Below, in pieces: positions 6,828 through 63,945 of a stretch of DNA of 64,000 nucleotides. The translations under genes were made by a program, and so were the position numbers. Location of the stretch: NCBI GenBank assembly GCA_944386735.1, contig CALXCH010000002.1, positions 90 to 64,089 on the forward strand, in the 5' to 3' direction. The DNA is from an uncultured Clostridia bacterium. GTDB taxonomy: Bacteria > Bacillota > Clostridia > TANB77 > CAG-508. The stretch's first letter is position 1. Each line of letters opens with the position of its first letter. Under the pieces are notes generated by a model, which saw only the letters and a program-made list of their open reading frames with translations, was not told the origin of the DNA and did no database searches.

Positions 6828-7289
6828 ATGTATAAGAAATTAATATTAAGCACATGCATTTTACTTGTAACTATTGTTTTCGTTTTTAGCGTCTCTCTTG
6901 CAAATGATGGCGCCAATATGTTACACGATGCTGCAAATGGTGTAAGAAATGTAGTTGGTGGCGCAGAAAATGCCGTTGAAGATGCAGCTGGTGGAGTATC
7001 TAATACTGCTAAAGATATGACAAACGGTGTGGAAAATGGTGCAAAATCTGCTACTAACTCTATGAGAAATTCTACTGGTACTACTAAAGATACTAATGAC
7101 AATCCAAATAATAATGGATATCTAGCTACTAGAACTTCTACAAATGCAAATGGAGCTGCAACATTCATGGGAATGACTTCTACAACATGGACTTGGTTAA
7201 TCATGGGAATTGCTACAATTGCAATAGTTGCTCTTGTGTGGTACTATGGAAGCCAAGTAAAATCTTCTAGATATGATGATAGAGATTAA
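6828..7289 (+). CDS. secreted or membrane-anchored protein with repeated A-x-x-G-V-x-N motifs
   Basis: Signal peptide, repeated (A)ANGVRN / AAGGVSN / TNGVENG units, and a C-terminal TM helix. SD AGGAGG. Confidence 0.6.
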   Translation: MYKKLILSTCILLVTIVFVFSVSLANDGANMLHDAANGVRNVVGGAENAVEDAAGGVSNTAKDMTNGVENGAKSATNSMRNSTGTTKDTNDNPNNNGYLATRTSTNANGAATFMGMTSTTWTWLIMGIATIAIVALVWYYGSQVKSSRYDDRD

Positions 7290-7302
7290 TTTTTATCTTA
7301 AT

Positions 7303-7341
7303 AAATGCACTTTAAGTAAATTTTAAAGTGCATTTTTATAT
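7303..7341 (+). terminator. intrinsic terminator
   Basis: AAATGCACTTTAA / TTAAAGTGCATTT stem followed by TTTATATTTT. Confidence 0.75.
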
Positions 7342-7391
7342 TTTATATGTTATAATATTTGTTGTAAAATATAAAAAACAGAGGTAGTAAC

Positions 7392-7851
7392 ATGAATACA
7401 AAATTAATTGCAAAAAATCCAACTGCTTATCATAATTATACAATTGAAGATAAATTAGAAGCAGGAATTGTACTTTCCGGTACAGAAATAAAATCTATTA
7501 GAAAAGGAAAAGCTAATTTAAAAGACAGCTATGCTATTATTAAAAATGGTGAAGTTTTTATTGTGGGAATGCATATTAGCCCATATGAACAGGGAAATAT
7601 TTTTAATAAAGATCCTATGCGTGATAGAAAACTTTTATTAAATAAAAAAGAAATAAATAAATTAATTGGATTAACAAAACAAAAAGGTTATAGCTTAGTT
7701 CCTATTAGTTTATATTTTAAAGGAAGTTTAGTAAAAGTAGAATTAGGAATTCGGTAAAGGTAAAAAATTATATGATAAACGTCAAGATATTGCTAAAAAG
7801 GATGCAGAGCGAAGAATAAATCAAGCTATGAAACAAAAATACAGAGAATAA
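7392..7851 (+). pseudogene. smpB: SsrA-binding protein SmpB, interrupted by a +1 frameshift near 7750-7755
   Basis: Frame 0 gives 121 aa of SmpB ([39 protein letters not shown]). The conserved C-terminal tail [32 protein letters not shown] continues in the +1 frame (7753-7851). Confidence 0.85.
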
Positions 7852-7870
7852 TTTTTTCTCTGTATTTTCA
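7841..7870. terminator. bidirectional terminator between smpB and the DUF2207 gene
   Basis: ACAGAGAA / TTCTCTGT stem flanked by T-rich and A-rich runs. Confidence 0.6.
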
Positions 7871-7879
7871 TTTTCATAT

Positions 7880-10141
7880 TTATTTAGAAACGACCTCCAC
7901 CGCCGCCTCCGGCCTCCGCCGTCCGCCGCCACCAGATGATCCGCCTCCAAATCCTCCACCTGAGCTATATGAAGATGAGCTAATACTATAAGAACTATTA
8001 TGAATAGCTGTTTCAACACTTCTGCTTAATTCTCTAGTTATTCCTAAATTTACACTTTGATATATTAATAAATTTGTATCTATATTACTTGTATCTGTAA
8101 TACTCATTTTCATCTTCTTTTCTACTTTATCGGCACAACCTAAAACTGTTGCTGTAACTAAATATCTTTCCCATAAAGTAATTTCAGGTAAATCTTTTTC
8201 ATCGAAATTACTAAAATCTTTTAGAAATCTTTTGTGGGCAAGCCATTTTGAATATTCTTCTTTACCTTTTTTGGTTCTATTTTTATCATTAGCATTTATA
8301 ACTAAATAGATACTATTAATTATTGTAATTCCTAGTAAATAACCTAAAACTTGCAAAGTACAATTACTTAATCCATAAAATACTCCAAATGCAAGACAAA
8401 GGCTTAAAACATAATTTATAATTACAAAAATTTTATAAATAATTGATGTCTCATTTCCTTTAAAATATTCTTTCCTCTCTGTTTCTTCCTTAGTTACTTT
8501 TTCAAACTCATCAATTCTTTTAATTAAATTTTTAGCCTTAGATGTGTTTTTTCCATAATTTTTTAAAGATTTTAAATTACATTTATTGTCTCTTCCAACC
8601 ATATTAAATAAAACATATAGAGCTACAGCTTCAGCACTTGTTCCTCTATAACTTTTGTTTTCAAGAACTAATATTACATCATCATTATCAGGATTTTTTT
8701 CATAAGATATTATTTTTTTGTTTATTAAATTTAATATTGTTGCTGAAAATCCTATATTAGTACTTTTCCTTTTCATTAGATATTCCAAGACATTTGGATT
8801 ATCCTCACTTGGAAACTCTCTATAATAGTGTCCTTTAAACTTATGTCTTTCATTAATTATTTTTATTAATTTATATATAGCAATAGCACCTAAGATGGTA
8901 TTTGTAATTATAACAAAAATTGTAAAACCTTTCCTTAATCTTGCTTGTTTTACCTCTAATACATTATTTAATTTTTCATAAATATTTAGATATTCCTTTT
9001 TTGCTTCTTCATCAAAACCTTCTTCTACATTTTCTTTAAAATCCTCTAGTCTGCTTCTTGTTAAAAACATATAATTATCATCTATTAAACTCTTTATATT
9101 ATATTTTAATCCTTCTTTCCAATTCTCATTTACCATGTCTTTTGTTTTTTCTATTCTATCTAAGAAATTTTGTTTTTCTTTGCTTGTTTCATCTAACTCA
9201 TTTACTAGTTCTAATGCATAATTATAATAATACATCCTTTGATTTTCTTCTAAATCAACTACTGCTTCACTTGCTTTACTTTCAAGATTCAATTTTTCTT
9301 TTTCTCTTTCCGAATTTGCTGTATCTGCCAGCATTTGCTCATATTTTAAAATATTATCTCTTCCATCTATATTAGATTTTTTAGTAGCTTGTGGCACCAA
9401 ATCTTTATTAAACATAATTCTTATAGTTTCTGGAGTATAACTATCTACATTTGTATCTTTAAAATACAATGTCTTAGAATCTAATATCTTATTTTCACCA
9501 GTAAGTGGCCCATGTGTCCAAATTCTAACATCACTATCTTCTCCTGGTAAATGTACAACAACTTGGAAATCTTCTACAATTTCTTCAAAATAATCTCCTA
9601 ATACATTCCAATATAATTCTGCTACATCATTATGCACTACAACTGCATCTTCAATAGTATATTCTATACACATAACTTTATTTTTGTTATTAGGGCAATA
9701 AATTTTAAAATCTCTACTCGAGCTATGTTCTGTAAGTTCATAAACTCCATAGTCGCCATTAGATGCACTTCTTACTTCTTCATATATAGTTTCAGCTTTT
9801 TTTATATCATCAATCGAATTAAAATTTTCTTGTGATATGTCATATACTTTAATATCTTTCATGCCTGTTCCATCATATATATCTGTATTTCCTGTAAAAT
9901 TACTATATATTCCAGTAAAAGCAATTGCATAAGGGTTTTTAAAATCTATATCTCTTAATCTACCATTATATTCTCCTTTAAGCCAAGCAGCTTCTCTTAC
10001 AGTCATAGAGCCATCTTCATTTATTGTTATATCTTGATATAGCAATTTAGTAGTTTCTTCTTCCTTCGCTAAAACATTATCTGTTAGGCAAAATACAAAT
10101 ATCATTGTAATAAATATTAATACTATTCTTATTTTTTTCAT
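7880..10141 (-). CDS. DUF2207-family membrane protein with a Gly-rich C-terminal tail (paralogue 1)
   Basis: Signal peptide, a large ectodomain, 3-4 TM helices, a WERYLV motif and a GGGFGGGSSGGGG tail. Paralogous to 19580-21496. The ATG at 10141 has better SD spacing than the one at 10147. Confidence 0.75.
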   Translation of the reverse strand: MKKIRIVLIFITMIFVFCLTDNVLAKEEETTKLLYQDITINEDGSMTVREAAWLKGEYNGRLRDIDFKNPYAIAFTGIYSNFTGNTDIYDGTGMKDIKVYDISQENFNSIDDIKKAETIYEEVRSASNGDYGVYELTEHSSSRDFKIYCPNNKNKVMCIEYTIEDAVVVHNDVAELYWNVLGDYFEEIVEDFQVVVHLPGEDSDVRIWTHGPLTGENKILDSKTLYFKDTNVDSYTPETIRIMFNKDLVPQATKKSNIDGRDNILKYEQMLADTANSEREKEKLNLESKASEAVVDLEENQRMYYYNYALELVNELDETSKEKQNFLDRIEKTKDMVNENWKEGLKYNIKSLIDDNYMFLTRSRLEDFKENVEEGFDEEAKKEYLNIYEKLNNVLEVKQARLRKGFTIFVIITNTILGAIAIYKLIKIINERHKFKGHYYREFPSEDNPNVLEYLMKRKSTNIGFSATILNLINKKIISYEKNPDNDDVILVLENKSYRGTSAEAVALYVLFNMVGRDNKCNLKSLKNYGKNTSKAKNLIKRIDEFEKVTKEETERKEYFKGNETSIIYKIFVIINYVLSLCLAFGVFYGLSNCTLQVLGYLLGITIINSIYLVINANDKNRTKKGKEEYSKWLAHKRFLKDFSNFDEKDLPEITLWERYLVTATVLGCADKVEKKMKMSITDTSNIDTNLLIYQSVNLGITRELSRSVETAIHNSSYSISSSSYSSGGGFGGGSSGGGGRRRPEAAVEVVSK

Positions 10142-10164
10142 TTTCATCCCCCATATACAAATTA

Positions 10165-10195
10165 TGATATAGAAAAATAAAATTTTTCTATATCA
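10165..10195 (-). terminator. hairpin after fba (possible terminator)
   Basis: TGATATAGAAAAAT / ATTTTTCTATATCA 14-bp stem. The trailing U-tract on the minus strand is weak. Confidence 0.45.
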
Positions 10196-10219
10196 CATTT
10201 TGTCTGCATAATAATGCTT

Positions 10220-11149
10220 TTATATTTTGTTACTTGAACCAAAAACATCTACCATTTTATGTTTTACTGTTTCTTTAATTAAATCCCTTGCTGGTGTTAA
10301 ATATTTTCTTGGATCAAATGCACTTGGTTCTTCTGCAAATACTTTTCTAATTCCTGCTGTCATAGCTAATCTTAAGTCTGTATCTACATTTATTTTTGAT
10401 ACTCCAGATATACTTGCTTCATGTAACATTTCATCTGGTACACCTTTTGCTCCTGGGATATTTCCACCATATTTATTACACATATCTACTAATTCTGGAA
10501 TAACTGTAGATGCTCCATGTAATACTATTGGAGTATTAGGTATTCTTTCCTTTACTTCTTTTAAAATATCAAATCTAAGTTTAGCTTCTCCTTTAAATTT
10601 GTATGCTCCATGGCTTGTACCAATAGCAATAGCTAAAGAATCACATCCTGTTCTTTTTACAAATTCTTCAGCTTGTGCAGGATCTGTATACATAGCATCT
10701 GATGCCTCTACATTTACATCATCTTCTATTCCTGCTAATTTTCCAAGTTCAGCTTCAACTACTACTCCTTTTGAATGAGCATAATCTACTACTTGTTTTG
10801 TTAATCTTACATTTTCCTCAAAATCATATTTTGAACCATCTATCATAACAGATGTAAATCCATTATCAATACACATTTTAGCTGTTTCAAAATCTGGTCC
10901 ATGATCTAAGTGAATTGCGACTGGAACTTCTGGATGTTCTTCTACTGCTGCTTCTATCATTTTCATTAAATATCCTATTCTTGCATATTTTATTGCACTT
11001 GATGATGCTTGTAATATAACTGGTGATTTAGCCTCTGCTGCTGCATCCATAATTCCTTGTATTATTTCCATATTATTTACGTTAAATGCACCTATTGCAT
11101 ATCCTTCTTTCATTGCTTTTTCAAACATATCCTTTGTTGTAACTAACAT
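10220..11149 (-). CDS. fba: class II fructose-1,6-bisphosphate aldolase
   Basis: Typical class II FBA sequence (GAFNVNNME, HLDHG, IGTSHGAYKF, LHGAS). Confidence 0.92.
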   Translation of the reverse strand: MLVTTKDMFEKAMKEGYAIGAFNVNNMEIIQGIMDAAAEAKSPVILQASSSAIKYARIGYLMKMIEAAVEEHPEVPVAIHLDHGPDFETAKMCIDNGFTSVMIDGSKYDFEENVRLTKQVVDYAHSKGVVVEAELGKLAGIEDDVNVEASDAMYTDPAQAEEFVKRTGCDSLAIAIGTSHGAYKFKGEAKLRFDILKEVKERIPNTPIVLHGASTVIPELVDMCNKYGGNIPGAKGVPDEMLHEASISGVSKINVDTDLRLAMTAGIRKVFAEEPSAFDPRKYLTPARDLIKETVKHKMVDVFGSSNKI

Positions 11150-39881: not shown

Positions 39882-40352
39882 CTAAGAATTTGTCATAAGC
39901 ATTTTAAATTCATCTTCATCTTTATCTTCTTTTGGTTTTATAACCTTAGACATAGTAACTTTTGTTCCTAAACCTACAACAGATTCCACCTCCATTTTAT
40001 CCATAAAGCTTTCCATTATAGTAAATCCCATTCCTGATCTTTCTAGATTAGGCTTTGTTGTATATAATGGTTCTTTTGCCATTTCTACATTTTCTATACC
40101 TTTCCCTTTATCAGAAATTTCTATTATAATTTCATTTTCTTTCAGCCAGCTTGAAATTTTAACAACTCCTTGTTTCTTATCATAACCATGAATAATACTA
40201 TTTGTAACTGCTTCTGATACAGCAGTTTTAATATCCGCAAGTTCCTCTATTGTAGGATCTAGTTGTGAAGCAAAAGCTGCAACGGCAATCCTTGCAAAAG
40301 CCTCATTTGAAGACTTACTAATAAATTCTAATTTCATCTCATTATTATACAT
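39882..40352 (-). CDS. spoIIAB: anti-sigma F factor (serine kinase) SpoIIAB
   Basis: GHKL kinase motifs ([30 protein letters not shown]). The ATG at 40352 follows GGAAGGAAAT. The track's 189-aa version reads through repeat DNA. Confidence 0.88.
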
Positions 40353-40369
40353 ATTTCCTTCCTTTCTTT

Positions 40370-40440
40370 GTCGCATTGGGGACGTTTCCTTTTGCGACAT
40401 TTTGTACTCATAGGAAATGTCCCTATGTGACATTTTATCG
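40370..40440 (-). repeat. H3 modular repeat, copy A, between spoIIAA and spoIIAB
   Basis: GTCGC-ATT-GGGGACGTTTCC-TTTT-GCGACA-TTTT-GTACTCA-TA-GGAAATGTCCC-TAT-GTGACA-TTTTAT. Confidence 0.9.
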
Positions 40441-40454
40441 TTTTGAAACACATC

Positions 40455-40769
40455 TTAATTCAATTCTACTGTTGGAATTAATTTTAATATCCCACTCATA
40501 TCAAAGATTCTCCTCACACTTCCAGTTAAATTGCTTACTCCTAGCTTTGCTCCTATCATATTTGCAAACTTATACCTTCCTATTACTAATCCTATTCCTG
40601 CGCTGTCCATGAAAGTAACACTATCAAAATCAAATACAACTTTTTTAGGCATATATCTTTCCATTTCATAATCCGCTTTCCTCCTTATCTCTTGTACACT
40701 ATGGTCGTCAATTTCAGACGTAACTTTTAGGACCAGCAGCTTGTCCTTTTCATAAAATTTTGACTCCAT
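40455..40769 (-). CDS. spoIIAA: anti-anti-sigma F factor SpoIIAA (STAS domain)
   Basis: STAS pattern with the phosphorylatable Ser context (FMDSAGIGLVIG). The ATG at 40769 follows GGAAGGAG. Confidence 0.88.
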   Translation of the reverse strand: MESKFYEKDKLLVLKVTSEIDDHSVQEIRRKADYEMERYMPKKVVFDFDSVTFMDSAGIGLVIGRYKFANMIGAKLGVSNLTGSVRRIFDMSGILKLIPTVELN

Positions 40770-40846
40770 ATAACTCCTTCCTTTCCAAAAATTTACATTA
40801 ATTATATTACTGTTTCCAATATTTTCCAAGAGTAAAAAATAAGAAG

Positions 40847-40878
40847 TTTTGTCGATTTATTAGAACTTTTCGACAAAA
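40847..40878. promoter_or_regulatory. inverted pair of Spo0A-box-like sequences upstream of spoIIAA
   Basis: TTTTGTCGA..N13..TTCGACAAAA. The minus strand reads TGTCGAA (the 0A-box consensus) about 100 nt upstream of the start. Confidence 0.5.
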
Positions 40879-41071
40879 CTTTTTCTTTACAAAATTATTC
40901 TTTTGATATTAAAACATACGATAAAATTTCAACTTTTAAATCTAATTTTGACGCTTACACAAGATGCAATGTTTGCATTATCTTCTTTTATAGTTTGACT
41001 CGAAAAAACACTTGCGTAATAAATATGCATGTAAATGTTATATCACAAATTTTTTATTTTGTTTTTTGAAT

Positions 41072-41102
41072 ACAAAATAGGGAGAGGTTTTATTCCTCTC
41101 CC
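41072..41102 (-). terminator. intrinsic terminator of the 131-aa orphan gene
   Basis: GGGAGAGG / CCTCTCCC stem followed by TATTTTG on the minus strand. Confidence 0.75.
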
Positions 41103-41135
41103 CCCTAAAACAAAGGCATTGCCTCTATTTTTTAG

Positions 41136-41531
41136 TTAGACTGTTTTCACCTTAATCGTCCTAGATTTTGGAATCTCATCTTCATTATAAAGAAGAATAC
41201 CATGGTTGAGATCAGATACTCGCGCTTGCCTCTCCAAATATTCAATCAACTTTTTGACCTCTTCCTTTCTATGAAAATATGAGTATTTTCCAATCACGAC
41301 TTGAATTGACTTGCTTTCGCAAAGATCTTTAAGAAATGGTTTGATATTATACCACCCATTATTATCTTTAAGTGCAACTACCAAATATTGAATACCCAAG
41401 CTATCATATCTTGGTCCACATAAACAAAACTCTTCTGTTTCTACTTCTATTTCAGGTTTACAAATTTTCATTCTCCAATCCTGAAATCTCCTTGCATCTG
41501 CATTTTCGATAATAAGTTGAATAGTAAACAT
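41136..41531 (-). CDS. hypothetical protein (131 aa), GC-elevated orphan cassette 1
   Basis: SD AGAAAGGAAAAG, own promoter and terminator, and elevated G+C. No family recognised. Confidence 0.6.
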   Translation of the reverse strand: MFTIQLIIENADARRFQDWRMKICKPEIEVETEEFCLCGPRYDSLGIQYLVVALKDNNGWYNIKPFLKDLCESKSIQVVIGKYSYFHRKEEVKKLIEYLERQARVSDLNHGILLYNEDEIPKSRTIKVKTV

Positions 41532-41589
41532 TTCTTTTCCTTTCTACTTAGTCTAACCTTTCTATCAATGCATAATCAATGCATGGTAA

Positions 41590-41620
41590 TATTATAGCAC
41601 ATTTTTCCAATTTTGTCATT
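41590..41620 (-). promoter_or_regulatory. promoter P1 of cassette 1
   Basis: Minus strand AATGACAAAATTGGAAAAATGTGCTATAATA (TGACAA, 16 nt, TATAAT with a TG extension). Near-identical to P2. Confidence 0.6.
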
Positions 41621-41642
41621 CTAATATTAAGGTTTTGCTTAA

Positions 41643-41674
41643 AGTAAAAGAGGCAGGATTTTACTCCTACCTCT
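41643..41674 (-). terminator. intrinsic terminator of the 147-aa orphan gene
   Basis: AGAGGTAGGA / TCCTGCCTCT stem with one G-U pair on the minus strand, followed by TTTTAC. Confidence 0.7.
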
Positions 41675-41686
41675 TTCCTCCCAAGA

Positions 41687-42130
41687 TTAATTACTCTTGG
41701 ACTTCGCGGCTCCGTCAATAACAACTTTTACTGTCTTTTTAATAGCAAAATATGTCATGCTCCCATTTTCGTTCTCGGTATCTTCAGGTGCCAAAATCTT
41801 CGACTCTCTACAAGTAATCTTGACAAGCCAAATCAAATGGTCAATAAGCTTTGAAAGCATTTCCCCATCAATTCCGAAATCCTTGTATGGCAAGACCAAA
41901 TCATACTTAGGTGCTTTGACTACTTCTTGGAACAAAGTCCCAATTTCGTCTGAAAGCTCAACTCTCTCTGTAAAATGGATTTGCCACTTGGAATAAGAGC
42001 ACGATGCCTTGGCATCAAGTATAAAACTTGGAGTCTCCACTCCACTTTCGGTATCCCTGAACTTCAGTACAGGAATATCACAGTTGCTACCAACAACATC
42101 CTCGAAAACAAGTTGAAACCTTGTAGCCAT
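41687..42130 (-). CDS. hypothetical protein (147 aa), GC-elevated orphan cassette 2
   Basis: SD GAGAAAGGA. My hand count of the first 100 nt gives about 40% G+C, against about 27% in the adjacent valS. No family recognised. Confidence 0.6.
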   Translation of the reverse strand: MATRFQLVFEDVVGSNCDIPVLKFRDTESGVETPSFILDAKASCSYSKWQIHFTERVELSDEIGTLFQEVVKAPKYDLVLPYKDFGIDGEMLSKLIDHLIWLVKITCRESKILAPEDTENENGSMTYFAIKKTVKVVIDGAAKSKSN

Positions 42131-42184
42131 TATAAATCCTTTCTCTTAGATGGGCTAGCCGCTGATACATTTGGTATCTATCTA

Positions 42185-42216
42185 CTATTATATCACAATT
42201 TTTCCAACTTGTCACT
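42185..42216 (-). promoter_or_regulatory. promoter P2 of cassette 2
   Basis: Minus strand AGTGACAAGTTGGAAAAATTGTGATATAATAGTAGATA, starting 6 nt after the valS stop. Confidence 0.6.
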
Positions 42217-42221
42217 TTATG

Positions 42222-44855
42222 TTACTTTAACTTTTCTACTACTTTTTCAAGCATTTCCTTATAATTCTTTAACTTTTCTTGTTCCTCTTCTACTTTAGCT
42301 TTGGGTGCTTTATTTATAAATCCTGGATTAGAAAGCATTTTTTCACATCTTGCAACCTCTCCTTCAAGTCTCTTCTTTTCTTCTTCTAATCTCTTCTTCT
42401 CTTCTTCTTTATCTATTAAACCTTCTAATGGCATATAAAGTTCAATTCCTTCTATAATTACATTAATACTATCTTCTGGAACATCTTTACTACTATTCTT
42501 TACTTCTAAAGAACTACCAAATGCTAATTTCAATAAAATATCTTCTAATTCTTTTATTTCCTTTTCATATCTATCTGTTACAAATATTAATTTAGATTTT
42601 TTACTTGGATGAATATTTTTAGTAGCTCTAATATTTCTAACTTCTACAATTAATTCTTTTACTTTTTCAACTGTTTCTTCTTCTTTTCCATAGTCTATAT
42701 CTTCTACTTCAGGCCAAGAAGATACCATTAAGTCTTTATCATCATATTTTACTAAACTCTCATATATTTTAGATGTAACAAATGGCATAAATGGATGTAA
42801 TAATTTTAAGCATGTTCTAAATACTTTATCAAGTACATATGATGTTTTTATTTTTTCTTCTTCTGTTCCATTATATAGACTTATTTTTGCCATTTCTATA
42901 TACCAATCACAAAATTCATTCCACATAAAGTTATAAATTTTATCAATTGCTACACCTAAATCGTATTTTTCTATATTATTTGTTATTTCTTTTACCAATT
43001 TATTTAGTTTATTTAATATCCATTTATCCTCTATTGATAATTTATCTGTATTTTCTCCTTTTGAAAATTCTATTATTTTTTCTTCATCTGGCCTATTCAT
43101 TATTATAAATTTAGCTGCATTCCAGATTTTATTTGCAAAATTAGATGCTTGGTCTAATTTTTCTGGCATATATCTAATATCATTTCCCATTGTAGTTCCA
43201 GATAATACTGAAAATCTTAATGCATCTGCTCCATATTTATCAATTACCTCTAATGGGTCAACACCATTTCCAAGTGTTTTTGACATCTTTCTTCCTTGGC
43301 TATCACGTACAATTCCATGTATTAAAACATCACTAAATGGTTTTTCATGCATTGCATAATATCCTGAAAATACCATTCTTGATACCCAGAAAGTTATAAT
43401 ATCATACGCTGTAACTAATACATTTGTTGGATAAAATGTTTTTAAATCTTCTGCATCTTTATTTGGCCAGCCAAGTGTTGAAAATGGCCATAATGCTGAA
43501 CTAAACCATGTATCTAATGTATCTGGATCTTGTTCTAAATTATTAGAACCACATTTTTCACATTTTTCTGGTTGTTTTTTTGCTACGTTAATATGCCCGC
43601 AATCTTTACAATAATATGCTGGTATTCTATGTCCCCACCACAATTGTCTTGAAATACACCAATCTTGAATATTATTCATCCAATTAAAATACATTTTCTC
43701 GTATTTTTTAGGAACAAATCTAACTTCGTCATTTTTTACAGCTTCAATTGCAGGTTGTACTAACTCTTTCATTCTAACAAACCATTGCTCTGATACTCTT
43801 GGTTCTATTTTTGTTTTACATCTTTCACATGTTCCTACATTATGAGTATAATCTTCTATAGATACTAATGCTCCTAATTCTTTTAACTTATCTACAATAA
43901 TTGGTCTTGCATCTATAGCAGTCATACCTTTTACTTCTGGCATTAAATCTCCCATTATTGTTTTACCATCAAATACTTCTATAAATTCTAAGTTATTTCT
44001 TTTTCCTGCTTCATAGTCATTTGGGTCATGGGCAGGTGTTATTTTAACACAACCTGTTCCAAACTCTTTATCTACGAATTCATCTGCAATAATTGGTATT
44101 TCCCTATTTACAATTGGTAGAATACAAGTTTTTCCAACTAAATCCTTATATCTTTCATCAGTAGGATTTACAGCAACAGCAGTATCTCCAAGCATTGTTT
44201 CAGGTCTTGTTGTTGCAACTTCTACGTACTTATCTTCACCTTTAATTTTGTATCTTAGATGCCATAAATGAGATGCTTCTTCTTTATATTCGACTTCTGC
44301 ATCTGAAATTGCTGTATTACAACTAGGGCACCAATTTACCATTCTTGTTCCTTTATAGATATATCCTTGATTATATAAATTAACAAATTCCTCTAAAACA
44401 GCATCTGATAAACCTTTATCTAATGTAAATCTACGTCTATCCCAATCACAAGAACATCCTAATTTTCTTTGTTGTTTTTGGATTTCTCCACCATAAAGAT
44501 GAGTCCAATCCCAACATTCTTCTAAGAATTTTTCTCTTCCTAAATCTTGTTTTGTTTTTCCTTCATTTCTTAGTTTTTGAACAACCTTCATTTCTGTTGA
44601 AATTGCTGCATGATCAGAACCTGGAAGCCATAGCGTATTATATCCTTGCATTCTTTTAAATCTAATTAATATATCTTGGATTGTACCATCTAGGGCATGT
44701 CCCATATGTAATTTTCCAGTTACATTTGGTGGTGGCATCATAATACAAAAACTTTCCTTTGTTTTATCCATACTTGGTTTAAAGTAACCTTTTTTCTCCC
44801 ATTCCTCATATAATTTATCTTCAAAATCTTTTGGATTATACTTATTTTCTAACAT
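42222..44855 (-). CDS. valS: valine--tRNA ligase
   Basis: 877 aa with class I HIGH (HMGHAL) and KMSKS (KMSKT) motifs, an editing domain and a C-terminal coiled coil. Confidence 0.95.
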   Translation of the reverse strand: MLENKYNPKDFEDKLYEEWEKKGYFKPSMDKTKESFCIMMPPPNVTGKLHMGHALDGTIQDILIRFKRMQGYNTLWLPGSDHAAISTEMKVVQKLRNEGKTKQDLGREKFLEECWDWTHLYGGEIQKQQRKLGCSCDWDRRRFTLDKGLSDAVLEEFVNLYNQGYIYKGTRMVNWCPSCNTAISDAEVEYKEEASHLWHLRYKIKGEDKYVEVATTRPETMLGDTAVAVNPTDERYKDLVGKTCILPIVNREIPIIADEFVDKEFGTGCVKITPAHDPNDYEAGKRNNLEFIEVFDGKTIMGDLMPEVKGMTAIDARPIIVDKLKELGALVSIEDYTHNVGTCERCKTKIEPRVSEQWFVRMKELVQPAIEAVKNDEVRFVPKKYEKMYFNWMNNIQDWCISRQLWWGHRIPAYYCKDCGHINVAKKQPEKCEKCGSNNLEQDPDTLDTWFSSALWPFSTLGWPNKDAEDLKTFYPTNVLVTAYDIITFWVSRMVFSGYYAMHEKPFSDVLIHGIVRDSQGRKMSKTLGNGVDPLEVIDKYGADALRFSVLSGTTMGNDIRYMPEKLDQASNFANKIWNAAKFIIMNRPDEEKIIEFSKGENTDKLSIEDKWILNKLNKLVKEITNNIEKYDLGVAIDKIYNFMWNEFCDWYIEMAKISLYNGTEEEKIKTSYVLDKVFRTCLKLLHPFMPFVTSKIYESLVKYDDKDLMVSSWPEVEDIDYGKEEETVEKVKELIVEVRNIRATKNIHPSKKSKLIFVTDRYEKEIKELEDILLKLAFGSSLEVKNSSKDVPEDSINVIIEGIELYMPLEGLIDKEEEKKRLEEEKKRLEGEVARCEKMLSNPGFINKAPKAKVEEEQEKLKNYKEMLEKVVEKLK

Positions 44856-45796: not shown

Positions 45797-46045
45797 CAAA
45801 AAGCTCGCCCCTAAAATAAGGGCGAGCATATTTCTCACGGTACCACCTTAATTATTATCTTATAAACGTAAATAAAACTTATTAAAAAATATTATAATTT
45901 ATAAATAATATCTCAATTAACTTTTAACGGAGTTTACCCGAATATTCTTAAATCAAAGTTTCTCAGAATATTAACAAAAAAGCTACCTTCAATTTAACTA
46001 TATTTAAGAAGCTTCCAGCTTACAACTTCTATTCTCTAAAAACTA
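45797..46045 (-). promoter_or_regulatory. T-box leader (tRNA-sensing riboswitch), presumably Val-specific
   Basis: On the minus strand: AGAGA box, F-box CCGTTA, T-box AAGGTGGTACCGTGAG, then the terminator GCTCGCCC..GGGCGAGC followed by TTTTT. The candidate specifier context is GAAGGTAG. Confidence 0.85.
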
Positions 46046-63573: not shown

Positions 63574-63599
63574 CGAAAAAAAATTATTAAAAAGGAAAT

Positions 63600-63945
63600 A
63601 AGTAAATCTATAAGCCGGGTTCTGTCTTTTAAAATAGTCATTTATCTAGGATAGATATCACTATCTACCTCAAGCCACGCAGATAAGAAGGCGCCGAGCA
63701 GGCTTAATCTTCTCATTTAGGTGTTGCTCCAGATGGGGTTTACACTGACCCATTATGTCACCATAATGGCGGTGAGCTCTTACCTCACCTTTTCACCCTT
63801 ACCTAATTTATAGGCGGTTATTTTCTGTTGCACTTTCCTTAAGGTCACCCTCACTAGACGTTATCTAGCATCTTTGCTCTATGGAGCCCGGACTTTCCTC
63901 TCGTAATTCCTTTCGGAATTTACCAGCGACTATTTAACTTACTTA
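63600..63945 (-). ncRNA. rnpB: RNase P RNA (M1-type ribozyme)
   Basis: The minus strand contains the universally conserved GAGGAAAGTCCGGGCTCCATAGAGCA and ACAGAACCCGGCTTA blocks. The termini AAGTAAGT / ATTTACTT can form P1. A TATAAT lies just upstream. Ends are approximate (+/- 5 nt). Confidence 0.93.

Follow-up and report, generated by a model that had tools for sequence, protein, structure and literature searches.

Minimal mobile elements are variable gene sets that lie between two fixed, conserved genes; homologous recombination exchanges them, and they have no dedicated mobility genes. Polymorphic toxin systems (LXG/T7SS, Rhs, CDI) have arrays of orphan immunity genes, and there are also acquired interbacterial defence islands. 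The locus described here is compared first with the minimal mobile elements of Neisseria (Saunders & Snyder 2002, Microbiology 148:3756, as cited in PMC1538595). Similarly to these elements, it has fixed conserved flanks (valS and spoIIAA) and alternative contents by species, including an empty site; it carries no integrase or transposase, a recombination tract runs across it, and slot and flank phylogenies disagree. It differs from them in that the alternative contents are mostly diverged copies of one cassette family, that each gene is a complete promoter-to-terminator unit which duplicates and reorders, and that the host belongs to an uncultured lineage of spore-forming Clostridia. We show that, in this clade, valS and spoIIAA enclose a hypervariable accessory slot, with the features of a minimal mobile element: varying content (empty included), no mobility genes and exchange through the flanks.

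In the window (the whole stretch of 64,000 nucleotides that was analysed), the interval from valS to spoIIAA holds two cassettes in the same direction, orfA and then orfB, whose 147-aa and 131-aa ORFs are present exactly as originally predicted. The features are, in the direction of transcription:

42222..44855, minus strand: valS, 877 aa, conserved upstream flank (orthologues match Pfam tRNA-synt_1 and Val_tRNA-synt_C)
42187..42215, minus strand: P2, promoter of orfA, GTGACA, 17-nt spacer, TG-extended TATAAT (motif scoring)
42131..42186, minus strand: orfA leader with a weak 5′ hairpin (GATAC..GTATC), a conserved GGCTAGCC box and the SD GAAAGGA
41687-42130, minus strand: orfA, family A, 147 aa (ORF listing)
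41638..41700, minus strand: orfA 3′ module, hairpin 1 (CCAAGA..TCTTGG), then the intrinsic terminator hairpin and U-run
41591..41619, minus strand: P1, promoter of orfB, ATGACA, 17-nt spacer, TG-extended TATAAT (motif scoring)
41532..41590, minus strand: orfB leader, in which ATGCATTGAT-T-ATGCATTGAT at 41564-41584 forms a 6-bp 5′ hairpin, and the SD GAAAGGA
41136-41531, minus strand: orfB, family B, 131 aa (ORF listing)
41070..41131, minus strand: orfB 3′ module, hairpin 1 (AGAGGCA..TGCCTTT), then the terminator hairpin GGGAGAGG..CCTCTCCC and U-run
41013..41062, minus strand: probable decayed promoter and leader stub of a third cassette (..TTTGTGATATAAC..ATGCAT..), without ORF (local alignment)
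40455..40890, minus strand: conserved downstream flank, spoIIAA promoter region and spoIIAA (STAS match)

No terminator was found between the valS stop (42222-42224) and the promoter of the first cassette, and the −35 element of P2 does start 6 nt past this stop, as had been claimed. From the valS stop to the spoIIAA promoter there are small ORFs only, and no mobility genes. The probable stub gave a local alignment score of 36, against 19.8 ± 3.1 for shuffled sequences (maximum 34, n=500). The spoIIAA promoter region carries two inverted, Spo0A-box-like TGTCGAA motifs, and spoIIAA encodes 104 aa counted from the ATG at 40769. A literature search on valS and spoIIAA returned no relevant report.

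Each cassette is self-contained: an extended −10 promoter of sigma-A type is followed by a short palindrome at the 5′ end, a strong SD, an ORF of 126-147 codons, and a hairpin with an intrinsic terminator behind it. P1 and P2 each agree with the consensus at 11 of 12 positions and carry the TG extension. The figure of about 27 identical promoter positions is reproduced by a gapped alignment (27 identities in 32 columns; 22 of 29 without gaps). Scanning of the 64-kb window with the composite motif TGACAA-N12-16-TGNTATAAT returned two sites only, P1 and P2 (0 expected from 100 shuffles). Across 9 lineages, [AG]TGACA-17-TGnTATAAT together with the SD AGAAAGGA was present in 14 of 15 cassettes. 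The motif of P2 recurs at the equivalent position in every relative.

The prediction that each ORF has its own SD and terminator was borne out, with strong SDs and double-hairpin 3′ ends and, in the orfA terminator stem, a G-U pair. At both 3′ ends two hairpins follow each other, with the U-run after the second (folding z = -4.6 for orfA and -3.95 for orfB); the orfA module is conserved in relatives with covarying stems. Cassettes end in a ‘stop-nCGTaa-hairpin-terminator’ arrangement, except for the frameshifted L022 copy and the operonic B1 of L023. The 5′ hairpins are energetically weak, and the energy of the orfA leader hairpin was not significant. Since ATGCAT is self-complementary, the orfB leader repeat doubles as a 6-bp hairpin, with compensatory changes at 2 of 6 pairs in 4 lineages. 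The tandem duplication reported for this leader thus exists as a repeat, but a conserved 5′ palindrome or hairpin is the better description, since relatives carry inverted and not direct repeats there.

As compact single-gene tandem units of variable number and order, with an imperfect palindrome right after the stop, the cassettes resemble those of integrons. Unlike integron cassettes, however, each unit has its own promoter and terminator, and no integrase was found in the slot or among the Pfam-annotated genes of loci with gene calls; assignment to this class was rejected on these grounds. Unlike attC sites, the palindromes vary in sequence and include G-U pairs, and hence look like strand-specific RNA stems.

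In HMM searches, families A and B were matched in this slot only (105 loci and the window). They are confined to a narrow clade of uncultured Clostridia and always occupy the slot directly after valS; the neighbours of the slot are valS, spoIIAA/AB, sigF, spoIID, an M23 peptidase gene and lexA in all loci. One to three cassettes are present per slot, in the orders A (L001, L007, L013, L014, L015), A-B (the window, L009-12), B-A (L016-21) and A-B-B (L023). Family A lacks a B partner in most lineages, so that the two are not an obligate pair; a type II toxin-antitoxin pair was ruled out by the A-only loci and by the separate promoter and terminator of each gene. Neither a toxin, a toxin-domain remnant, a phage gene nor a defence gene was found in or adjoining the slot, in the window or in the relatives’ loci. 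The L022 copy is frameshifted and pseudogenised. Within species the allele is stable: P0005 is identical on 10 contigs from different samples, and there is therefore no sign of intraspecific diversifying selection.

In sister species (~80% ValS identity) the slot is empty or holds unrelated cargo, a 191-aa gene and a DUF402 gene; the comparison of valS-spoIIAA intervals thus recovered the empty sites that had been sought. The original prediction of orphan, horizontally acquired insertions is accordingly upheld in part. Empty sister slots, anomalous composition and horizontally exchanged content agree with it, but the insertion is not a one-off, family A occurring at the same position in every clade member found (8 further allele types). 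Conservation as core genes at this position across the genus, which had been named as grounds for abandoning the original claim, is thus seen in part.

The slot contrasts sharply with its surroundings. Identity to relatives was 91-94% for ValS, 91-97% for SpoIIAA, 89-92% for SigF and 85-89% for SpoIID, versus 36-56% for A and 38-40% for B. At the nucleotide level, it drops from ~90% to ~40% over precisely the stretch bounded by the valS stop and the spoIIAA promoter, and is back at ~90% at ~40900. Flank dS was ~0.2-0.8, and family A gave dN of 0.21-0.71 with omega of 0.15-0.44. The N-terminal 52 codons of A had omega of 0.05-0.22 with dS of at least 0.5, and the remainder 0.15-0.5 (C-terminal two-thirds up to 0.48); no whole-gene omega exceeded 1. 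The ORFs are thus real protein genes under purifying selection, omega being ~0.1 for the first third of A and 0.15-0.5 beyond it.

Two comparisons point to exchange. The flanks of L019 are nearest to those of the window, yet its A and B group with those of L016, whose flanks are the most distant. L001 and L015 are ~93% identical in valS and ~100% identical from the last ~600 nt of valS across the slot into spoIID. From these sequences, slot content evidently travels between lineages via homologous recombination in the conserved flanks. NG86 dS is biased between genes of GC3 0.14 and 0.5, and the view that the alleles are older than the species therefore leans mainly on tree incongruence.

By their sequences, orfA and orfB define two new protein families, A and B. 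The absence of a recognisable domain, as originally noted, held in every library: none of the 17 members scanned had a Pfam/NCBIfam match above cut-off (Imm, SUKH and SMI1 families included), PADLOC and PHROGs gave no match, and sub-threshold profile matches were inconsistent among members. Nor was there any match to a well-characterised housekeeping family, which had been named as grounds for abandoning the original prediction. With orfB, Tad8 scored 16 bits (cut-off 27) and EAD7 18 bits (cut-off 32), matches confined to two near-identical B sequences and missing from the other four; a known anti-phage or anti-defence protein was rejected on these sub-threshold scores and the negative PADLOC result. 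PDB searches, run with single sequences as well as with profiles of A, of B and of the two merged, returned nothing, an alphaRep match being discarded as a 23-residue low-complexity alignment. No donor was found in protein sets of 5.8 bn and 1.84 bn sequences or in phage, plasmid and viral sets; similarly, tblastn against phages and plasmids and A-profile scans of viral contigs and JGI metagenomes gave nothing. The best all-versus-all BLASTP matches were to other slot proteins: orfB to L019_X1 (40%, E = 2e-26) and orfA to L016_X2 (39%, E = 3e-26).

Between orfA and orfB themselves, pairwise BLASTP (E = 0.49) and shallow profile comparisons (E ~0.1) were not significant. Deeper profiles of A and B aligned colinearly over 116 columns (hhalign, E = 7e-4), and the merged A+B alignment is colinear. 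Since they share the entire cassette architecture, from promoter, leader hairpin and SD through ORF length and the predicted order of secondary-structure elements to the stop-hairpin-terminator module, A and B probably are remote paralogues. This agrees with the shared descent proposed initially. All cassettes probably go back to a single ancestral cassette that was duplicated as a complete unit, with a later split into A and B. OrfA has an 8-aa C-terminal extension, the ancestral stop having been lost (TAA to GGA) and the new stop lying inside the loop of 3′ hairpin 1. The proteins are predicted to be soluble and mildly acidic, without a hydrophobic N-terminus.

We then consider base composition. 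The clearly raised G+C claimed for both ORFs is seen in orfA (40.1% G+C, GC3 0.405; valS 29.2% and 0.136) and is only modest in orfB (32.8%, GC3 0.273), whose overall G+C is inside the core-gene range. The composition check that had been called for does detect a deviation: GC3 over the 53 window ORFs averaged 0.151 (sd 0.065) compared with 0.41 for A and 0.27 for B, orfB ranking fourth highest of the 53. Across lineages the cassette genes had GC3 of 0.24-0.57, against 0.13-0.15 for the host. SpoIIAA also has part of the GC3 anomaly. Third-position changes were roughly balanced, 24 GC>AT versus 19 AT>GC by singleton polarisation, a crude, parsimony-biased test (the valS control shows the bias) which gives weak evidence only. 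The excess in all lineages and this balance speak against one recent import. Simple amelioration, codon optimisation and mRNA structure do not account for the anomaly. In the ‘plug-in’ reading given below, which we consider quite unlikely, the synonymous G+C excess (up to 0.57 versus 0.14) would be actively maintained, by GC-biased gene conversion at a recombination hotspot, a process proposed in bacteria (PMC4450053), or by selection for RNase-resistant mRNA.

What the cassettes do is best explained, if tentatively, as follows: they would form a recombination-swapped accessory islet encoding autonomously expressed, fast-diverging cytosolic proteins, plausibly related to conflict. P1 and P2 would both be constitutive, and valS transcription would run on into the first cassette. 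The double hairpins may stabilise the cassette mRNAs and shield the Spo0A/sigma-H-controlled spoIIA operon from upstream transcription. The encoded alpha/beta proteins would be soluble and abundant in the cytosol; their core would be conserved and their C-terminal surface fast-changing. Most likely they would bind a rapidly evolving partner in a genetic conflict, for example to neutralise a toxin, phage or mobile-element factor. This plausible conflict role is the weakest link of the explanation, and an enzymatic role of the products is less likely. The immunity or anti-phage role suggested at the outset is still a guess, since PADLOC, PHROGs and the phage, plasmid and viral-contig searches were all negative.

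Orphan immunity arrays resemble the A/B cassettes in several ways: small soluble cytosolic proteins (126-147 aa here), tandem paralogues, extreme divergence between close relatives and no family match. In contrast to such arrays, the slot has no nearby toxin or remnant, and no Imm, SUKH or SMI1 match; the genes are individually promoted and terminated, not operonic; and A combines a strongly conserved N-terminal third with a variable C-terminal part. With no adjoining toxin and no match to a described immunity family, assignment to the polymorphic-toxin immunity families was rejected. A bolder version of the conflict reading, which we consider quite unlikely, would make the cassettes an unrecognised self-contained ‘plug-in’ conflict module: a promoter-hairpin-ORF-double-hairpin unit that duplicates, reorders and is swapped whole between species, with A/B, of a new small fold, neutralising a fast-evolving phage, mobile-element or interbacterial factor, and with the G+C excess actively maintained.

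It is unlikely, but worth setting against the islet explanation, that the products are lineage-specific regulators or adaptors, co-transcribed with valS, which modulate entry into sporulation or tie sporulation to aminoacylation status, their divergence reflecting weak constraint. The terminator-free position right after valS is invariant in 9 of 9 lineages, the slot adjoins the Spo0A-box region of spoIIAA, which partly shares the GC3 anomaly, and PADLOC and PHROGs show no hallmarks of a conflict system. However, in sister species that also have the valS-spoIIAA arrangement the genes are missing or unrelated cargo is present, strong terminators stand between the cassettes and spoIIA, copy number and order vary, and an identity of 36-56% is unlike a core regulator (SigF ~90%).

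Effectively neutral passengers are also an unlikely explanation. Foreign genes, imported long ago or repeatedly from an unsampled source richer in G+C, would persist and drift in an intergenic hotspot that tolerates them, having little function or none. This is the horizontal acquisition originally proposed, less the function. That the slot accepts other cargo too, the high GC3 in all cassettes, the frameshifted L022 copy, the decayed promoter stub and the relaxed C-terminal two-thirds of A (omega up to 0.48) are as expected from drift. Against this stand intact ORFs in 13 divergent copies, the low N-terminal omega of A at saturated dS and the upkeep of promoter, SD and terminators. Moreover, the balanced third-position changes give no decay toward AT, and no donor was found in the protein, phage, plasmid and viral sets.

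Structure prediction brings in a third alternative. AF2 modelling of orfA gave a pLDDT of 49 with a 6-sequence alignment, and of 77.6 (pTM 0.75) with 14 sequences. The latter model is a single alpha/beta domain with the order beta-beta-beta-alpha-beta-alpha-beta, that of RNase H-like folds. The AlphaFold and Foldseek check proposed for this protein thus gave an alpha/beta fold without significant structural match: none reached E < 1e-3 in PDB and BFVD, the best having E 5.5e-3, TM ~0.33 and rmsd of 8-10 A. In the alternative, which appears improbable, A would be a minimal RNase H-like nuclease acting on nucleic acid (defence effector or toxin) and B a catalytically dead paralogue regulating or inhibiting A. 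As in the RNase H-like superfamily (RuvC, RNase HI, DEDD exonucleases), the predicted element order and the weak top structural and Pfam matches are consistent: the top Foldseek matches all have this fold (HIV RT, RuvC, RNase HI, terminase nuclease, MutS connector), and 4 of 11 A members have a sub-threshold match to DNA_pol_B_exo2, also RNase H-like. In A, D88 is invariant and E10 nearly so, and B has no invariant acidic residue. Unlike members of that superfamily, however, neither family has a conserved catalytic acidic set: no other acidic residues of A are conserved to the degree of these two, which leaves it without a DEDD or DDE set. The Pfam scores are far under the cut-off of 24 (orfA 11.9 bits; best member E 0.033), and A stands alone in most lineages, so that B is no needed inhibitor.

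Finally, G+C-rich islands in A+T-rich genomes often are structured RNAs and folding of the L001 allele mRNA is better than that of shuffled sequences (z = -3.7), but structured non-coding RNAs or chance open frames are effectively refuted by a frame open in all divergent copies, indels in multiples of three, substitutions gathered at third positions with N-terminal omega of 0.05-0.2 in A, a negative Rfam search and inconsistent folding (z = -1.8 for orfA, 0.0 for orfB).

The locus has no bearing yet on long-standing questions. If the islet explanation is true, two new small protein families, possibly with a new fold, are confined to an uncultured gut Clostridia lineage, and the locus would offer a clean Firmicutes case of a core-gene-flanked slot swapped by homologous recombination, beside the master sporulation operon. 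It would also present a sharp and persistent synonymous G+C anomaly, with GC3 of 0.4-0.57 in genomes at 0.14. As amelioration, codon optimisation and mRNA structure fail to explain this anomaly, it could serve to weigh GC-biased gene conversion in bacteria against selection. Should the cassettes indeed be ‘plug-in’ modules, the locus would be a natural test case for the upkeep of local G+C in an extremely A+T-rich genome.

The interval between valS and spoIIAA, hereafter the slot, held the two ORFs of the original prediction, both on the minus strand, orfA (147 aa) and orfB (131 aa), in the order valS, orfA, orfB, spoIIAA-spoIIAB-sigF-spoIID.

Features of the slot and its flanks in the window
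42222-44855, minus strand: valS, upstream flank of the slot
42215-42187, minus strand: P2, orfA promoter, GTGACA-17-TATAAT, 11/12, TG extension
41687-42130, minus strand: orfA, 147 codons, next after valS
41619-41591, minus strand: P1, orfB promoter, ATGACA-17-TATAAT, 11/12, TG extension
41136-41531, minus strand: orfB, 131 codons, after orfA
~41013-41062, minus strand: decayed promoter and leader stub, P1-like (..ACAAAAT..TTTGTGATATAAC..ATGCAT..), with no ORF behind it
40455-40769, minus strand: spoIIAA, GC3 0.305, above the window mean of 0.15
39882-40451, minus strand: spoIIAB, GC3 0.22, above the window mean of 0.15

P1 and P2, scored here by a consensus scan, were the top two promoter-like sites of the region, and the proposed search for their module, run on the 64 kb, found the composite motif TGACAA-N12-16-TGNTATAAT at these two sites only (0 expected). 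As predicted, P2 started 6 nt after the valS stop, with no terminator in between. Each ORF also had the SD and terminator attributed to it: GAAAGGA lay 6 nt upstream of the ATG in both, and two hairpins followed each, with a U-run after the second (z = -4.6 and -3.95 against shuffles). The orfB leader contains the repeat noticed earlier, ATGCATTGAT. The stub is probably the remnant of a third, lost cassette.

Among 5.8 billion clustered proteins, orfA matched one near-identical cluster and four at 52-60% identity, and orfB a single cluster (96% identical). Profile searches gave 12 clusters in total in the clustered set and six further family-A members among 1.84 billion representatives. All members with usable context lay immediately after valS, and the order valS-A-spoIIAA was found in three GTDB species, each of 'uncultured Clostridia bacterium' MAGs. 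All-against-all BLASTP sorted the small slot ORFs of the loci fetched from relatives (L001 and so on) into two families, A with orfA and B with orfB, the latter matching the slot ORFs L019_X1 (40%, E = 2e-26) and L016_X1 (38%) and the two additional L023 genes (E about 1e-14). The slot carried A alone in five lineages and A-B in the window and in L009-L012, which are nearly identical to it; the content was B-A in L016-L021 and A-B-B in L023. In the most distant lineage (L022, 850-1170), the copy of A behind valS carries a frameshift, with the C-terminal ARITRVVII readable in another frame (the protein P0016 is its intact 162-aa counterpart); next to it come an HTH_3 gene and others, not spoIIAA.

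A search for empty-site alleles had been suggested, and these were found in species with ~80% ValS identity, where valS has a terminator of its own, with the spoIIAA promoter next. Other contigs of equal SpoIIAA identity carried an unrelated 191-aa gene, with a weak transglutaminase-like match, and a DUF402 gene of 168 aa. In one human-gut outgroup species (SpoIIAA 84%, ValS 80% identical), the slot was either empty or filled by this pair (L029 3431-4689, also L033, L035, L036 and L038, compared with L028, L030-L032, L037 and L039). Outside the A/B clade, too, the slot thus acts as a hotspot for insertion. Elsewhere in the window, and across 80 outgroup loci retrieved using SpoIIAA, the A and B HMMs had no match.

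Compared with L001, L013 and L019, the window was 92-94% identical in ValS, 91-97% in SpoIIAA and 85-89% in SpoIID (SigF, 90-92% for L001 and L013), 36-56% in family A and 38-40% in family B. Nucleotide identity dropped from ~90% to ~40% right at the valS stop and was regained at the Spo0A-box region of spoIIAA. A second local dip (58-66%; 40430-40560, minus strand), at the spoIIAA/spoIIAB junction, coincides with a variable SpoIIAB N-terminal extension, called starts giving 156-189 aa across lineages. Between species, dN of A (0.27-0.66) equalled or exceeded flank dS (about 0.2-0.8), NG86 dS being not strictly comparable at such different compositions. Incongruence of slot and flanks is the stronger argument: the flanks of L019 are nearest to those of the window, but in its B-A slot it clusters with L016 (ValS only 80% identical). 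L001 and L015 were ~93% identical over most of valS and ~100% from its last ~600 nt into spoIID, a tract of at least 3.4 kb (L001 ~7277-10600) taking in A, spoIIAA, spoIIAB and sigF. It is a recent recombination tract that carried the slot between otherwise ~7% divergent lineages. The slot contains no mobility gene and is, on the strength of the incongruence and this tract, exchanged by homologous recombination through the core flanks.

The same design, [AG]TGACA-17-TGnTATAAT with the SD AGAAAGGA and a short 5′ palindrome a few bases past the expected start site, recurred in 14 of the 15 cassettes, the odd one being L023 B2, located 22 nt behind B1. The 3′ end read stop-nCGTaa-hairpin 1-terminator, save in the frameshifted L022 copy and in L023 B1, which continues directly into B2. 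B-leader palindromes varied in sequence with pairing kept (ATGCAT/ATGCAT, ATGTAC/GTACAT, TGCACA/TGTGCA; two of six pairs compensatory), their energies being unremarkable. The 3′ stems likewise varied in sequence among cassettes and include sense-strand G-U pairs. Pairwise similarity of orfA and orfB was not significant (E = 0.49). Profile-profile comparison of 11 A and 6 B sequences was colinear across 116 columns (E = 7e-4), and the merged alignment preserved the order of predicted strands and helices, which, with the common non-coding architecture, upholds the proposed distant paralogy; duplication of a whole ancestral cassette is the simplest account. The added P1/P2 spacer identity (TTGGAAAAAT) is particular to the window lineage: in L001 the orthologous promoter has other bases at this place, and 20/30 positions agree within the L016 pair (hand count). 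Such identity points to a common operator or to local gene conversion. These comparisons show a hypervariable accessory slot, swapped by recombination and holding autonomous expression cassettes that share one origin.

The predicted G+C elevation of both ORFs was strong for orfA (40.1% G+C, GC3 0.405) and modest for orfB (32.8%, 0.273), compared with valS (29.2%, 0.136) and with a mean GC3 of 0.151 +/- 0.065 for the 53 window ORFs. GC1+2 of the slot ORFs was ordinary; the anomaly therefore sits at synonymous sites. GC3 reached 0.24-0.57 in family A and 0.20-0.38 in family B, neighbours in the same genomes having 0.11-0.17. Since the excess is carried by G-ending codons (such as AAG, GAG, AGG, CTG, GTG), ordinary translational optimisation is an unlikely cause. 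In a crude test on five close A genes, lineage-specific third-position changes were roughly balanced (24 GC>AT vs 19 AT>GC), which is not the picture expected of a single decaying import. Folding z-scores of the mRNAs were inconsistent (-1.8, -3.7, 0.0). spoIIAA shared a weaker excess (GC3 0.18-0.34 in the relatives L001, L007 and L013-L015), and GC3 was raised in spoIIAB too; the excess therefore spills into the downstream flank and not into the valS 3′ end. The excess might be explained by repeated import from a pool not yet sampled, by mRNA-stability selection, or by GC-biased gene conversion, a process argued for bacteria (PMC4450053), at a recombination hotspot.

Elsewhere in the window, another orphan cassette was located next to the RNase P RNA gene:
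63595-63945, minus strand: rnpB, RNase P RNA gene, 299 bits
62940-63455, minus strand: 171-aa ORF, third orphan cassette, immediately downstream of rnpB; GC3 0.39, second highest of 53 ORFs

This ORF had no Pfam match and, in HMM comparison, no kinship to family A or family B; its promoter-like aaaaTGTGATATTATattAGTAGATAC resembles P2 and the orfA leader start. valS is preceded by an aldose-1-epimerase-like gene, and a T-box-like leader (45815-46000+, minus strand) upstream of the latter scored 36 bits on a truncated stretch, under the gathering score, which was not reached in the whole-window scan either. Its position points to joint T-box control of the epimerase gene and valS as a single unit.

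As the original prediction had it, no domain was recognised: neither protein matched the domain and family libraries above cut-off. orfB reached 16-18 bits for Tad8 and EAD7 (cut-offs 27-32), matches that other B members lacked. The proposed modelling, run for orfA with AlphaFold2 (14-sequence alignment), gave one alpha/beta domain (pLDDT 77.6, pTM 0.75) with strands 5-13, 16-26, 48-53, 75-81, 104-107 and 133-139, helices 61-71 and 89-100 and a disordered 115-128; the Foldseek search of PDB and BFVD returned nothing at E < 1e-3. The 8-residue C-terminal tail of orfA stems from loss of the ancestral stop. A and B proteins were computed to be soluble and mildly acidic, with no hydrophobic N-terminus. 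The cassettes encode two new small proteins, constrained yet fast-diverging and predicted to be cytosolic.

We tentatively favour, at somewhat below an even chance, a composite reading in which the swapped cassettes would be strongly and constitutively expressed, with further transcription coming through from valS. Their double hairpins would stabilise the cassette mRNAs and screen the developmentally controlled spoIIA operon, and the products may interact with a fast-changing partner in a genetic conflict of some kind, a role suggested by the evolutionary pattern. That A and B are regulators linked to neighbouring genes is improbable; so, to the same degree, is that they are near-neutral passengers. 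Still less probable is that A is an RNase H-like nuclease and B its catalytically dead paralogue: the best Foldseek matches, weak at TM about 0.33, were all RNase H-like-fold proteins, and four A members had sub-threshold matches to an RNase H-like exonuclease family, but no conserved set of catalytic acidic residues as in this superfamily was found in A or B, D88 being invariant and E10 nearly so in A, with no other acidic residue so conserved, and none invariant in the B alignment. A non-coding RNA or chance ORF is ruled out by purifying selection on the slot genes, with omega of 0.15-0.44 over whole genes, 0.05-0.22 (dS at least 0.5) in the N-terminal 52 codons of A and 0.14-0.48 in the remainder.

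The swapped cassette slot behaves like the 'minimal mobile elements' reportedly described in Neisseria (cited in PMC1538595), all three tested features being found. The slot genes failed the defining tests of a type II toxin-antitoxin pair, their cassettes those of integron cassettes, and A and B those of known defence or anti-defence families and of a described immunity family. Thus, the type of locus is known, and what is new are the protein families, the duplication of a whole promoter-to-terminator unit and the persistent, unexplained synonymous G+C excess at the slot.
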